From contig JBMFOP010000048.1 in assembly GCA_049969675.1 (NCBI GenBank), forward strand, positions 1 through 25,254: a DNA stretch of 25,254 bases, read 5' to 3'. Shown here piece by piece: positions 9,001 to 15,000 of the stretch. The number at the start of each line of letters is the position of its first letter. Position 1 is the first letter of the stretch. The position numbers are program-made. Origin of the DNA: Myxococcota bacterium. Its GTDB lineage: Bacteria; Myxococcota; SpSt-1050.

Positions 9001-12000
9001 TCCAGCCTTCTTCCCGCCCTTGCCGAGTTCGCAATTCTCTCCACATTTTGTATTTAAGCCCAGAATTGACTGTCCGGTCTTGTCAAGGGTAAAGCCCATC
9101 TGACACTTCTGATTCTCTCCACAGGTTAAATCGCCATAACAATCCGGTTTAAAGCGACTTGGAGAACAGGATGCGCAGTACTTCTTCTCTTCTACCTTAC
9201 CCTCATTTGAATTATAAATCTTAAACAATAGACATCTCTTATCTCCAACACAGTTTGAATCATCTGTGCACTGGTTATCATCTTTTATATCTGTGTTCTT
9301 AATATAACACCCCTGACAGATACTAGCCTGATGAGCCTCTGAATAGACACAATTTGCTTCACCCGGATAAGTACAATCCCTGTTATCATTACAATAGTTT
9401 ACACATCTATCAGTCTTGATACACATAGCTGTTCCATACTGGGCAGAGTTTAGACACTCATAACAACTCATACTATAACCACCTATGGTGCTTTTAATCT
9501 CTGAACAATCAGCAGATTTTTCGCACTTCATTGAACAGACCGAACCTTCTTTGTATAATCCATTGTCGTCCCTTTCACCCACACAATATGTCTCACCGGG
9601 CTTGCAGGCAACATTGCCGAGCTTATCACAGGGGGTGCCAGGACCACCGTTTTTCTGCTCACATTCACCCTCAGTATAAACACATATCTTCTTTGAACTA
9701 TCCAGTGAATCATATGTACAGCAGTAATTCTTCCCACCCGCAAAGCCAGCACAATCGCTATCAGATTTACACTCCTTTGAGCAATATGAATTCTTTATCT
9801 TTGCTACAAGACCATAGCAGAAGTTTGATTCACAGACATCATCAGATGCACAGAGTTCTCCATTTTTCTTAAGTGGTTTCTTACAGGTTTTTGTGGACTG
9901 ATTACATATAAGGCCCTCACAACAGTCCTCATTCTTTTCACAACCCTGATTGAGTGCAGAACACTCTGGTGTTGTATCTGCTGATGATGTGTCTGAGAGT
10001 GTGACATCCTTACTCCTATCAACGTTATCCGAGCAGGCAGAGAAAACCAATGCCATAAACATAAAAACTACAATTACCAATAAAACCTTTTTCATCTAAA
10101 ACCTCCTAAAAAATGGTTTTTACCCCAAAATGACCCGCTTAATAAAATATATATTACGGAGGTTGTCAAATATAAAAGTCCGGGATTAAATAACTGTCTG
10201 AAATTCCTGTCATAATCACTGCTGTCCAAAACAATATGCTCTGAGATGTTAACTATCTATTAAACCAGGGATTATGTATTGATAGATTAACATATCTAAA
10301 TCTTAAGACCGCCTTTTTTCGCTATCCATTAAAATGTGCTCCAATTTAAATAATCTTCAACAAAGACCACAAGTGCCCTGCTGGCGAAATGGGGAAGTAA
10401 AGCGTAGCCTCATAGTGCAATGCATAAATTCTTTATTCAATTAAGCCTATAATATTGATAAAACTGGATTCATTTTCAATTTTTATTTAAGACTCATAAA
10501 ATCTATGCAGTGCGAATCATCTGCTGAGCAATTAGAGGCAGGATGATTCTATTGTGATTATGCCGAAGGCGTCACACAAAAAAATTAACATCAAAATCTT
10601 ATAGTGCCGTTTAGGCTTATGCCTGTAAGGACTCATGCCGTGTAGGCAAAATGGCGGAGCGAAGCGACGCCTCGTAAAATCCTTCACCAAAAATTTATTG
10701 TGGGCAGATGTGTATTGACTTAAAAAAATATTTTTACTATATATCTCTCTGTCCTTTGAGACCTTAACCTATTTAAAGAAAGGAATACAAATATGATTCT
10801 TCACGAACCTTACAAGATTAAATCAGTGAGAAATATCCCATTTACAACAATTTATGAGCGGAAGAAGATTCTAAGGGAGCACTTCTATAACATCACCCTG
10901 ATACCATCTGGCAAAGTTACATTTGATATGACTACTCAGGGTACTTCTGCTATGACACAGGAGCAGGTATCAGCCCTCTTTGTTGGAGATGAGGCATATG
11001 CAGGTGCTGTAAATTTCTATCATCTGGAAAAGGCGGTGGCAGATATCTTCGGTCTGAAATTTACCTGTCCCACTCACAATAAATATGGAAATCTGAAACT
11101 TTTGACCTCAATCTTTGTAAAAGAAGGTAAGATGGCTGCCTCAAATACCATCTTTCCCAAAGAGTTAATAGAATATTACAAAGGAGAGTTCTTTAAAATA
11201 AAATCAAAAGTTGAGAATGGAATATCAAGGCTGGATATAACAGATATAAAACAACTCTCAGATAGGAAGGGGCAACTGGCATATATCTACATTGACCTTC
11301 GTTCTGATGAAGGTATAGCGGTGGACATAAATGATATACAGGAGATCTGCAGGCTTTTGAAGGATTCAGGTATCCCTTTCATTATTGATGCAAGCAATAT
11401 AGTACTCTGGGCTAATGTCATTAAAAACTCAAATACTGCCCTCTCTTCAAAGCCCATTTCTGAAATAATAAAAGAGACCGCTGCCCTCTCTACTACAGTA
11501 GTGGTAGATGCAGGACAGGATATAAAGAGCAATGTGGGAGGATTTATCGCTACGAACAACCCCAAATTTCACGAGGCTCATCAGAATGAGGTGGTAATCT
11601 ATGAGGGGCTTCATACTTATGGTGGGATGGCTGGAAGGACGATGGAGGTTGTTGCTGTTGGTTTGAGAGATATGATTGTTGAAAATGATGTAATCTGGTA
11701 TCATCAGCAGATAGAACTCCTCTCAAATCTACTTAAAGAGAACGGTGTTGCACATTATAAAGGGATAGATGGTATATATCTTGAGACCGACAAAATACTA
11801 AATCACATTAAGGAGAATAGGGTTCATACACTCGCCGCTGCGCTATACCTCAAGTCTGGAATCAGGGCACATATAGGTGGGAGATATCTTGATTCAGAGA
11901 TTCTACCAATACTTCTACCGAGAAGAGCTCTGTTGAATACACAGGTTGCTCAGATTGCGGAGGCGATCATTGAATTGTGTAAAGAGGCAACAGTGATTAC

Positions 12001-15000
12001 ACCACTTATGCTTACCAATAAGCCATTATATCATAATGAGGCGGTATTTGACTGGCTTTTACCCATAATTAAACCTTATGAATTTACCTGTGAGCCTTAT
12101 ATAATTCACTCAATTGAAAGAATCGCCATGAAGAGTATTGAGGAGAGGAGGAAGGCGATTGAGGATGCTGGTTATAATACATTCCTTTTGAAGATGGAGG
12201 ATGTTACAATAGATTTATTGACTGACTCCGGTACCGCTGCAATGAGTGTGGAACAGTGGAGGGCGTATCTGGGGGCACAGGAGACACCCAATACATCAGA
12301 TGCATATTTAGATCTCGTAGAGACCGCACAAAGAATTTATGGATACAAATATATTATCCTCACCCATCAGGGAAGGGCGGCGGAACATATTATGTCACAG
12401 ATGTTTATCAGACCCGGTGACTATGTCCCCGGAAATATGTACTTTACAACCACAAAACAACATCAGGAGATGGCTGGTGGAATATTTGTAGATGTTATAG
12501 TTGACGAGGCAAATGACACTGAATCAGAATTTGAATGGAAAGGCAATGTGGATATGAAGAAACTTGCCGATATCTATGATAAGGCAAAATCTGAGGGGAA
12601 GAGACTCGCATACATCTCCTTTGAGTTCAATGTAAATCTTGCTGGTGGTCAGCCGGTCTCAATGGATAATATGAAGGCGGTATATGAATTTTGCAAACCG
12701 AGGGGGATCCCGGTCTTCTTTGATGCAACCAGATGTGCAGAGAATGCAATATTTATCAAACAGCGAGACCCACGATATAGAGATGCATCAATAGAGGATA
12801 TCTTACTTGAGATGTTCAGTTATGGAGATGGTGCTACAATCTCTGCAAAGAAGGATATGCTTACAAATCTCTCCGGTGCACTGATTTTTAAAGATAATGA
12901 GCAGTGGTATAGAGACGCGCTGAGGATGCTCCAGATATTTGAGGGGAGCCATTCGAGCGGTGGGACATCTGCCGGAGATATGGCAACACATGCACAGGGA
13001 TTGCGAGAGATGGTAGATGAGAGATATCTGAGGGCGAGAGTTGAGCAGGCAAGATATCTTGGAAGACTTCTAACTGAAGCAGGGATACCTATCGTTATGC
13101 CCCCGGGAGGACACGCCATCTTTCTGGATGCAAGGAAGTTTCTTCCGCATCTGGACCAGGACCAATTTCCTGCTCAGACACTGGCCGCTCACATCTTTAT
13201 TGAGACCGGGGTTCGGGCGATGGAGAGAGGGAATGTAAGTAAGGGGAGAGACCCAAAAACGGGAAAGAATTACAGGCCAAAACTGGAACTTGTGAGACTC
13301 ACAATACCAAGAAGGGTGTATTCACTTGACCATCTGAAGGCTGTGGCGGAGGGAATTATCAAGCTCTACAAAAAACGAGATACCATCCGGGGGCTGGAAT
13401 TTGTATACGAACCAAAGGCACTGCGATTCTTCCAGTCCAGATTCAGATTGGTCTGATTAATAAGTCCTCCCCGCTCATCCGAGATAAGGTTTAATTTTAT
13501 TAGTAATTTCATCTAACTCTTGATAATTAAAAGTACTGCCTGATAGATTATTTGAAACGACAATTATATTCCCGGCACCTTTTGACTGAAAAATATCATA
13601 ATTTTCATTATACCTCATTTTATTTGCTCAACATTAATCATTTCCCGGATACTGTCAAGTAAAATGAATGTGGTTTATTTATTCTACTCCTCTATTATAA
13701 ACTCCACTCTCCTATTTATCTCTCTATTCTTCTTTGATGTGTTTGGGACAAGCGGTTTATCAGGTCCATACCCCTTTGCTTCAAGAAGTTCTGCTGGTAT
13801 TCCTACCTTTATAAGGTAGGCTTTTACAGCATCTGCTCTATCCTGTGAAAGCCTCAGATTCTTCTCCCTCAAACCAATGTCATCCGTATGACCCTCTATT
13901 TTTACCTTCTTTATTTTTGGATTGGCATTTATCACATCTGCTATCATATCCAATATGATTGTGGAACTCTTATCTATCTTTGCTGAATTGAGGGCAAACT
14001 GTATCTTCTTCTTTAATGTTATCTTATTCTGCTCCACCACTATCAATTGCTCCTTAGGTCTATCTTTTAGCATAAGTTCAACCGTAGCATCTCTCTCCTC
14101 CTCTACCTCTACTACTTTCCCAACAGATAATTTATCTGGAGCCTTCGCCACCACATACCACTTCCCCACATCAAGTCTTGATGTATATATCCCGTCTGAT
14201 GTCCTCTGTATCTTTATCTCCCTATCTCCGCTTACTGCTGTCACCTCTGCATCATTTATATTCCGCCTCTTCTCATTCAACACCTGAACTATTATACTCC
14301 CCTGAATAATCTTCTTCTTGAGAAAGACCTTGAGATTTGTAACCACATCCTTCGTTACCTGTGCACTTACCTTCTTCTCAAAATATCCATCCTTTGAGAG
14401 TGCCAGATTATATATCCCAACATTTAATGGCAGAGTCTTAAATTCCCCACTCTTTGAATCAGTTGCAAGATTCGGCAAATCCGTATTCTCTATCCTGATT
14501 ACCACATTCCCAAGCGGATTCTCTGTCTCCTCGTCATATACTACTCCCTTAATTATTCCAGTCTTTACAACTGGCTTTGGTGTCTCTACTACCTTCGGCT
14601 TCTCAACCACCCTCTCCACTATCTGCGGCTTTGGTGTCTCCATCCTATCGGTTGCAAACATCACTCCGAGTATTACTCTAAAGAGTGGTGAACCATAACC
14701 GGGTAGGATCCCTCCTCCAACTCCTCCTACCACCCCAATCCCATTGGCAAAGAAGTATCTTGAGGATAGTAACCATTCGAGCGGATTCTGCTCCTCATAC
14801 TGAAATGGATATACTGCGCTCGTCGCCCCTGAGAGGTCAAACCCTAATATCAGTTCCCTCCCCTTCAACATCAACGGATATGTCACTCCTATATTATACA
14901 CTATCTCATCATCATATATCTGATACAGCTTCTCTCCAAGTCTCGTCCTCTCCCTAAATGTATAACCAAGATTTAAGGCAAGCATCATCTTAAATGGAAA

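Follow-up and report, generated by a model that had tools for sequence, protein, structure and literature searches.

The window analysed here, a 25,254-nt stretch of a Myxococcota contig (JBMFOP010000048.1, assembly GCA_049969675.1), contains a gene for an 887-aa protein that is probably, with a likelihood we put near 0.7, a single-chain pseudo-heterodimeric tyrosine phenol-lyase (TPL) that has a single composite active site in each chain. Two TPL folds lie in one intact, stop-free ORF. In the arrangement we propose, the two halves would take up the fold of TPL's catalytic dimer, PLP being bound to Lys687 of the C-half. This half would also supply the substrate pocket (the equivalents of Thr124, Asn185, Arg217, Arg381, Arg404, Phe448 and Phe449), and the N-half would contribute three residues: Tyr69 (TPL Tyr71) as general acid, Tyr276 (Tyr291) as ligand of the phosphate, and Glu67 as part of the monovalent-cation site. 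With its lysine lost on one side and its tyrosines on the other, the mirror site would be empty. The likely reaction is the conversion of L-Tyr to phenol, pyruvate and ammonia, and a pseudo-tetramer of two chains, with two sites where TPL has four, is the probable oligomer.

TPL (EC 4.1.99.2) cleaves L-Tyr to phenol, pyruvate and ammonia and requires K+ or NH4+. The known enzyme is a homotetramer of chains of about 456 aa with four PLP sites; Tyr71 is the general acid, Lys257 binds PLP, and Thr124, Arg381, Phe448 and Phe449 have roles in the pocket (PMC10170061). Activity of the Tyr71Phe enzyme on Tyr is not detectable (PMC5054688). Tryptophanase of E. coli has two tyrosines, Tyr74 and Tyr307, that bind PLP in the adjacent subunit (PMC2770544). 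The corresponding features of the tandem gene are as follows.

10780..10784, forward strand: Shine-Dalgarno-like AAGGA, 8 nt 5' of the ATG, from sequence reading
10793..13456, forward strand: gene for the 887-aa tandem beta-eliminating lyase, an uninterrupted ORF with two PF01212 matches
10793..12064, forward strand: N-half, aa 1-424, the putative donor half; no PLP lysine, partner-face residues and N-terminal arm Lys8/Lys10 kept
10985..10999, forward strand: GDEAY 65-69; Glu67 is TPL Glu69 and Tyr69 is TPL Tyr71 (general acid); G, D, E and Y each 120/120; in the predicted interface
11507..11521, forward strand: DAGQD 239-243, degenerate lysine motif by alignment; Ser254 to Asp, Lys257 to Gln
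11603..11638, forward strand: EGLHTYGGMAGR 271-282; Tyr276 is TPL Tyr291 and Arg282 is Arg297; 11 of 12 positions 120/120; 268-274 and 278-283 in the predicted interface
12065..12091, forward strand: short linker, about aa 425-433 (~9 residues) by alignment of the halves; longer in early branches
12092..13453, forward strand: C-half, aa 434-887, the putative PLP- and substrate-binding half by sequence and structure comparison with TPL
12212..12235, forward strand: DLLTDSGT 474-481, equivalents of Thr49, Ser51 and Gly52 by alignment
12278..12289, forward strand: QETP 496-499; Tyr71 replaced by Pro499 (Tyr in 0/151), Glu497 retained
12842..12856, forward strand: SAKKD 684-688; Lys687 is PLP lysine 257 by alignment with 1c7g (role of Lys257 from PMC10170061)
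12941..12976, forward strand: EGSHSSGGTSAG 717-728; Tyr291 and Arg297 gone by alignment
13220..13231, forward strand: MERG 810-813; Met379 and Arg381, TPL-type (Arg 151/151)
13421..13435, forward strand: LRFFQ 877-881; Phe448 and Phe449, TPL-type (150/151)

The tandem of two beta-eliminating-lyase folds, recognized in a first-pass annotation, is evident from PF01212, which matches the protein with 280.2 bits (cut-off 27) in two stretches, each above the cut-off (nt 10925-11632, E 2.2e-19; nt 12212-13348, E 9.9e-64). Aligned with each other over 441 columns, the halves are 26% identical (raw score 335, E 5e-39), and SAKKD of the C-half stands opposite DAGQD of the N-half, confirming that the latter has Gln where the PLP lysine belongs. 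The top PDB match is E. herbicola TPL 1c7g (residues 431-886, E 4.3e-159). Of the previously described Lys-Lys PLP motif the lysine is indeed present; more precisely, it is the second Lys that aligns with Lys257. Repeating the search with the N-half again returned 1006 matches among 8000 candidates scored.

The losses in the two halves are complementary. Among 151 fused proteins, the equivalents of Tyr71, Tyr291, Glu69 and Arg297 are present in every N-half and that of Lys257 in none; every C-half has the Lys257 equivalent, and none has Tyr71 or Tyr291, which enzymes of this kind take from the partner subunit. Thus, a "catalytically dead" N-half, as had been claimed, is not supported, given its general acid and three further site residues, nor is the C-half a "normal" TPL: it lacks both tyrosines and scores 617.5 on the TPL equivalog model TIGR02618, below the cut-off of 720.7. 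The N-half scores 220.9, and the whole chain passes (828.5) only through the summing of two stretches. Gln242 itself, reported as invariant (41 of 41), is found in 113 of 120 fused proteins in one set; in a set gathered with a single-domain query, Gln stands in 70 of 120 and Glu in 36. Since the query for the latter set was an intact single domain, its members were not chosen by motif; 118 of the 120 show the reciprocal pattern of lysine in the C-half and tyrosines in the N-half, and two (P0242 and P0243) show the opposite polarity. At 221 positions conserved in at least 90% of 114 stand-alone TPLs of a clade that we call "LHT," 93 residues are kept by the C-half only and 18 by the N-half only; of these 18, two loops (67-80 and 282-300) contain 15 and the N-terminal arm two.

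Because the degeneration is reciprocal, we regard the N-half as the catalytic partner and not merely as dead. Each copy keeps exactly the parts of the site that the other has lost, and together they should therefore build a single working site. The earlier idea of a covalent pseudo-dimer, with the N-half giving the partner-subunit face, is supported by these residue counts, and the single lysine per chain points to half as many sites as in the classical tetramer. With two unequal domains and one lysine, the chain does not fit the TPL scheme of a homotetramer whose identical chains each have a single domain and which binds four PLP.

That the gene is an artefact or a decaying duplicate is extremely improbable. 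One public record covers just the last 462 residues, dropping the N-half; moreover, two of the 11 fusion copies in a sample of the phylum are broken, and the C-half is decayed at locus L025. Against this, both halves lie within a single complete ORF at 31 of the 38 fused loci taken from named genomes (the remaining seven reach the contig end in frame), which rules out an assembly artefact. The 31 complete loci, all with one ORF, span about eight phyla as labelled in the records, so the form is as widespread as had been suggested. Indeed, 49 N-half positions are kept in 118 or more of 120 fused proteins, whose mean identity is 47%, and this conservation already refutes artefact and decay alike. 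A free C-half made from an internal start was considered and rejected: the 462-aa record opens at ATT (nt 12068) with no ribosome site nearby, probably a start-calling artefact. Scans around the gene gave chance levels of promoters (12 versus 11.3) and terminators (2 versus 2.7). No RNA data set was listed as containing the gene. It is covered by contigs of one DNA run, one of which spans the junction; the run may be the source sample and is not counted as support.

Structure prediction bears on how the halves pair. The complex model of the two halves scored 0.89, with 0.00 for the best of three controls; the mark used is reached by 116 of 157 solved pairs, against 2 of 215 mismatched ones. 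Contacts agree between runs to at least 94%, and partner pLDDT is at least 92; the model may have passed because of its resemblance to TPL dimers already solved. The predicted interface joins N-half residues 66-73, 268-274 and 278-283 to C-half residues 476-482, 525-532, 692-693 and 874-881; Tyr276 is absent from the named contacts, and its neighbours are present. Gly480, Asn692 and Glu67 touch in the model; they are equivalent to Gly52, Asn262 and partner Glu69, which we take to be the monovalent-cation site of TPL. The single-chain model (pLDDT 83.7, pTM 0.78) has residues 68-70 and 442-456 under pLDDT 50, and the fold matches TPL in Foldseek (E 2e-49, TM 0.92 on the target, 52% identity).

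The composite site could instead form between chains, the linker joining halves of different catalytic dimers in the pseudo-tetramer so that activity needs two chains. In its favour, the linker measures only about 9 residues, the single-chain model predicts stretch 442-456 of the C-half poorly, the two halves were cut apart before the complex was folded, and arm residues Lys8 and Lys10 are conserved in the N-half only. We nevertheless consider this arrangement unlikely, given a whole-chain pTM indicative of some ordered packing between the halves.

Still less probable is a pseudoenzyme role for the N-half, as a regulator, a scaffold or a non-covalent binder of PLP, beside a C-half working alone. 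Such a role would suit the Asp214 equivalent still present in 79 of 151 N-halves, the Ser at position 216 in all 151, and the largely kept mirror cation site (Gly52 and Asn262 in the N-half, Glu69 in the C-half), where Glu497 contacts Asn247 in the complex model; PMC7259800 predicts non-covalent PLP for the lysine-less half of glycine decarboxylase. However, N-halves lack the equivalents of Gln98, Gly99, Arg100, Phe123 and Ser254, so that the phosphate cup and stacking Phe are gone, and position 254 is Asp in 146 of 151. C-halves lack Tyr71, and C-C pairs therefore cannot carry out Tyr elimination. With the PLP residues gone and no partner tyrosines in the C-half, the regulatory or non-covalent-PLP site raised in the first-pass annotation seems unlikely in this branch.

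The C-half pocket is of the TPL type: Thr124, Arg381, Phe448 and Phe449 equivalents occur in 151, 151, 150 and 150 of 151 C-halves. It scores higher on TIGR02618 than on three tryptophanase models and carries MERG and RFFQ, where the separate tryptophanase-type protein of the same genome has VEIG and RHFT; His at 448, as read in P0122, is a tryptophanase mark. The proposed site might nonetheless serve another substrate, such as a substituted or halogenated tyrosine, an S-substituted cysteine or another beta-elimination substrate. Compared with studied TPLs, Met288-Pro-Ser is replaced by Leu-His-Thr (Leu and His each 151/151), Asn stands at about 383 in 146 of 151, and Gln is found at 450. Moreover, among 41 loci there is no shared neighbour gene pointing to Tyr: no conserved neighbourhood was found, the biggest true neighbour cluster covering 3 of the 41, and Pfam gave mixed families on 68 flanking ORFs. 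Retention of all four pocket residues makes a different substrate rather improbable, as does the score of the stand-alone LHT proteins, four of four tested being above the TPL equivalog cut-off. Among 301 genomes of the phylum, the fusion is present in 11, a stand-alone TPL-type gene in 18 and both in none, a weak argument since only about 1.9 overlaps are expected among 106 positives and kin are not independent.

As for the origin of the TPL fusion, both halves trace to the LHT clade: C-halves nest among stand-alone LHT TPLs in trees, and a single origin by duplication and fusion within that clade, followed by reciprocal loss, is probable. On whether one gene was duplicated or two paralogues were fused, an AU test does not reject N- and C-halves as one clade (p 0.385), which does not thereby show such a clade. 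Early fused branches have milder lesions, Lys257Glu in the N-half and Tyr71Ala/Pro/Val with Tyr291Ser/Ala in the C-half. Tentatively, and with more doubt than confidence, we suggest that the family preserves a series from a symmetric two-site enzyme to an obligate one-site pseudo-heterodimer: intact LHT parent, mild early fusions, and last a general breakdown of the site no longer used. In another fused lineage (P0242 and P0243) the polarity would be reversed, the working site combining the N-half lysine with the C-half tyrosines; with its reshaped pocket (Thr124Ala, shortened Arg381 loop, Phe449Ala), that enzyme would be a lyase for a new substrate. If true, tandem fusion would be a repeated route to asymmetric and re-purposed beta-lyases. 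No two-gene (split) form was found among the 38 fused loci. N-only proteins end at scattered places, many being marked partial, and split forms may exist.

The fusion is a clear natural example of how duplicated copies of a well-studied enzyme undergo reciprocal loss. Because the residue roles are known, each step from homo-oligomer to obligate one-site pseudo-heterodimer is testable with a few point mutants. A single-chain TPL also has two site faces that could be altered independently, which would be useful for synthesis of L-DOPA and tyrosine analogues. Public names, often "tryptophanase," and the record without the N-half mislead on function.

A renewed literature search, like the earlier one, found no paper on a fused or duplicated TPL. 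Set against TPL of C. freundii and E. herbicola (PDB 1c7g, 2ez1 and 2tpl; TIGR02618), the two halves taken together lack none of the named catalytic and pocket residues; the known enzyme is a homotetramer with four PLP sites, whereas here each chain has two unequal, incomplete copies and an LHT loop in place of MPS. In the stand-alone LHT clade (e.g., P0176 and P0198), one symmetric, single-domain 460-aa chain has GDEAY, EGLHTYGG, SxKKD, MERG and LRFFQ, the sum of the halves. Tryptophanase (EC 4.1.99.1; NF009709, TIGR02617), the name several sources give the fused proteins, shares the family and the dimer mechanism. In eukaryotic serine palmitoyltransferase, SPTLC1 lacks the lysine. PMC11307022 describes SPTLC1 and SPTLC2 as paralogous PLP subunits with the active site at their interface; unlike the fused TPL, they are encoded by separate genes and form a membrane complex with another reaction. 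A similar architecture is that of the glycine decarboxylase P-protein (GcvP/GLDC), whose alpha-beta pair reportedly has one shared site (Nakai 2005). This fold type I enzyme has two similar halves, fused or as an alpha-beta pair, with Gln for the active-site Lys in the N-half, according to PMC7259800. The fused TPL likewise has two fold-type-I halves with the lysine in the C-half only, and this published precedent means that it is not the first of its architecture. It works like GcvP without being a member, however, differing in family, reaction and origin, which is independent; glycine decarboxylase reaches an equal end state, but comparable intermediates were not met there, whereas intact parents and graded intermediates of the fused TPL are extant.

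A stop-free ORF at window 10793-13456 on the forward strand encodes 887 residues, within which Pfam places two matches to PF01212. The two halves align with each other over 441 columns at 26% identity (E 5e-39), and DAGQD at 239-243 of the N-half stands opposite SAKKD at 684-688 of the C-half. The tyrosine phenol-lyase (TPL) of E. herbicola matches the C-half across 431-886; counted along this alignment, the equivalents of TPL residues Lys257, Tyr71 and Tyr291 are Lys687, Pro499 and Ser722, respectively. The homologue count of the first-pass annotation, 1006 matches among 8000 scored candidates, was reproduced by a repeat search. 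In an alignment of the query with 119 of the 120 listed homologues (a 648-aa fragment was left out), Lys686 and Lys687 are invariant, as had been claimed (120/120), whereas Gln242, likewise described as invariant, is found in 113/120.

The C-half had been taken for a normal TPL and the N-half for merely a dead copy. Neither description fits: both partner tyrosines, the Tyr71 and Tyr291 equivalents, are gone from the C-half, and the N-half retains both. Lys257 is the PLP-binding residue of TPL and Tyr71 the general acid, with Arg381, Thr124, Phe448 and Phe449 serving Tyr cleavage (PMC10170061); Tyr71Phe has undetectable activity on Tyr (PMC5054688); and in E. coli tryptophanase the PLP phosphate is bound by Tyr74 and Tyr307 of the neighboring subunit (PMC2770544). 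By homology, the latter pair would correspond to Tyr71 and Tyr291 of TPL.

We compared 114 stand-alone relatives with 151 fused proteins, namely 117 from one source and 34 complete locus ORFs from another, not de-duplicated against each other (loci of the window itself were excluded, as were a duplicate and a broken copy). Of the 221 positions with conservation of 90% or more among the stand-alone proteins, 93 are kept in the C-half only, 18 in the N-half only and 25 in both; 15 of the 18 lie in loops 67-80 and 282-300 and two are the arm residues Lys9 and Lys11, the numbers printed in this count being TPL numbers plus one. Tyr71, Glu69, Tyr291 and Arg297 are each present in 151/151 N-halves, Tyr71 and Tyr291 in 0/151 C-halves, and Lys257 in 151/151 C-halves and 0/151 N-halves, counts that are partly built in because the 34 locus ORFs were chosen by two of the scored motifs. 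A motif-free check, with an intact single-domain query against long proteins, gave 949 matches. Among the 120 listed, of which 27 had also appeared in the first set, Lys257 is in the C-half of 120/120, Tyr71 and Tyr291 are confined to the N-half in 118/120, and a Lys occupies position 257 of the N-half in 3/120.

The AlphaFold2 model of the whole chain (pLDDT 83.7, pTM 0.78) is weak at 68-70 and 442-481, and its top Foldseek match is TPL. Modeled as two chains with PLP, the halves reached a complex score of 0.89 (best control, 0.00), with contact agreement between runs of at least 94% and partner pLDDT of at least 92. The mark for this score is passed by 116/157 solved complexes and 2/215 mismatched pairs, rates that are only rough for this case, and the pass may come from resemblance to solved TPL dimers. 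For these separately folded halves, the modeled interface (N-half 66-73, 268-274 and 278-283 against C-half 463-482, 525-532, 553-560, 692-693 and 874-881) is the one expected. In the complex model Glu67 adjoins Asn692 and Thr481, which together we take to be K+ site residues, and Glu497 contacts Asn247, so a mirror cation site may persist.

Thr124, Arg381, Phe448 and Phe449 are retained in 150-151 of 151 C-halves. The source genome has a second gene, single-domain and of tryptophanase type (G000:C64). In a phylum sample of 301 genomes, the fusion occurs in 11, a stand-alone TPL-type gene in 18 and both in none, which is weak evidence on substrate; all 11 fusion genomes have an additional 43-50% match, with tryptophanase motifs confirmed in the 6 checked. 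Against certainty on Tyr as the substrate stand the donor loop, Leu-His-Thr (LHT) rather than Met-Pro-Ser, and an Asn at about 383 in 146/151 C-halves. The TPL profile cut-off was reached by 4/4 stand-alone LHT proteins tested; the C-half alone falls below it.

Stand-alone single chains that combine GDEAY, EGLHTYGG, SxKKD, MERG and LRFFQ are common, and these proteins, which we call LHT-type, are, judging by their motifs, the sum of the two fused halves. Trees were built from 66 and 46 rows (a hand-picked subset; quick search without bootstrap). In both, the N-halves form a single clade (SH-aLRT 100 and 99), as do the C-halves (99 and 99), with branching orders that are almost mirror images; N- and C-halves as one clade are not rejected by the AU test (p-AU 0.385). 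The earliest branch in these trees comprises five genomes (G016, G045, G076, G091 and G101), all from one family. In 5/5 the N-half is near full-length with SAKE, that is, Lys257Glu, and the C-half has Pro/Ala/Val for Tyr71 and Ser/Ala for Tyr291 and retains Arg297. Further shallow branches exist besides this family. Two fused double TPLs, P0242 (944 aa) and P0243 (927 aa), have MP-type loops and Lys257 in both halves. Their N-half carries Tyr71Phe, Tyr291Cys, Thr124Ala and Phe449Ala and lacks MERG; their C-half has both tyrosines, yet also Asn185Thr and Arg217His. The tyrosine distribution is reversed, and the reshaped N-half pocket is a candidate for a new substrate. Their C-halves fall outside the main C clade and their N-halves group with other N-halves (support 96). 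That grouping may be long-branch pull, so a second origin is likely.

The fused protein is a real, conserved and new TPL variant. Fused loci make up 38 of the 80 returned from named genomes (31 complete single ORFs, 7 interrupted by a contig end), under titles naming Bacteroidota, Gemmatimonadota, Planctomycetota, Acidobacteriota, Eisenbacteria, Myxococcota, Chloroflexota and Gammaproteobacteria; one cultured species, Plebeiibacterium marinum, holds it. Against the reading that the two halves share one active site, the C-half at locus L025 is decayed with pocket residues lost, and the N-half is broken by a TAA stop in one genome (G039:C172) and by a frame break in another (G101:C47). The public record P0335 (462 aa) covers the C-half alone (window 12068-13456, start at an ATT codon); C-half-only calls such as this hide the N-half.

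No conserved neighbors of the fused gene were found across the loci examined. In the window it stands by itself, with both flanking genes on the opposite strand. Other genes noted in the window are:

263-7280, housekeeping context: cysK with an Rrf2 regulator, purB, dapA-dapB
1902-3908, forward, SctV/FlhA-family export gate protein
7765-10095, reverse, cysteine-rich protein of 776 aa whose start resembles that of a lipoprotein
13684-24798, reverse, surface protein of 3704 aa, weakly TraB-like, that carries 16 MopE-type repeats and an OmpA domain at its C-terminus

Besides the SctV/FlhA-family gene, the scanned window ORFs include no secretion or flagellar genes. The 776-aa protein has no match in Pfam or NCBIfam; it is 70% identical to a gene at the equivalent place in locus L010, and its atlas matches under 0.9 are Myxococcota cysteine-rich proteins. 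A divergent Lrp/AsnC regulator lies upstream of the fused gene in two loci (L044:5350-5811, L049:50-547). At L037:4575-8664 a tryptophanase-type gene is immediately upstream of the fused gene, and at L052, L074 and L128 one adjoins the stand-alone LHT gene.

No description of a fused TPL was found in the literature, as judged from titles and the starts of abstracts, with subscription papers mostly outside and supplements not covered. PKS-line lyase domains without Tyr71 and Arg381 are a different case, described in a paper that also notes that Tyr71 is dispensable for some substrates (PMC3870968), and SPTLC1/SPTLC2 (PMC11307022) is a looser analogue than glycine decarboxylase. The latter has similar halves, fused or as an alpha-beta pair, with Gln replacing the lysine in the N-half (PMC7259800). 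Its P-protein has the same fold and is an architectural precedent for the fused TPL, which probably (roughly 0.7) works by the same design.
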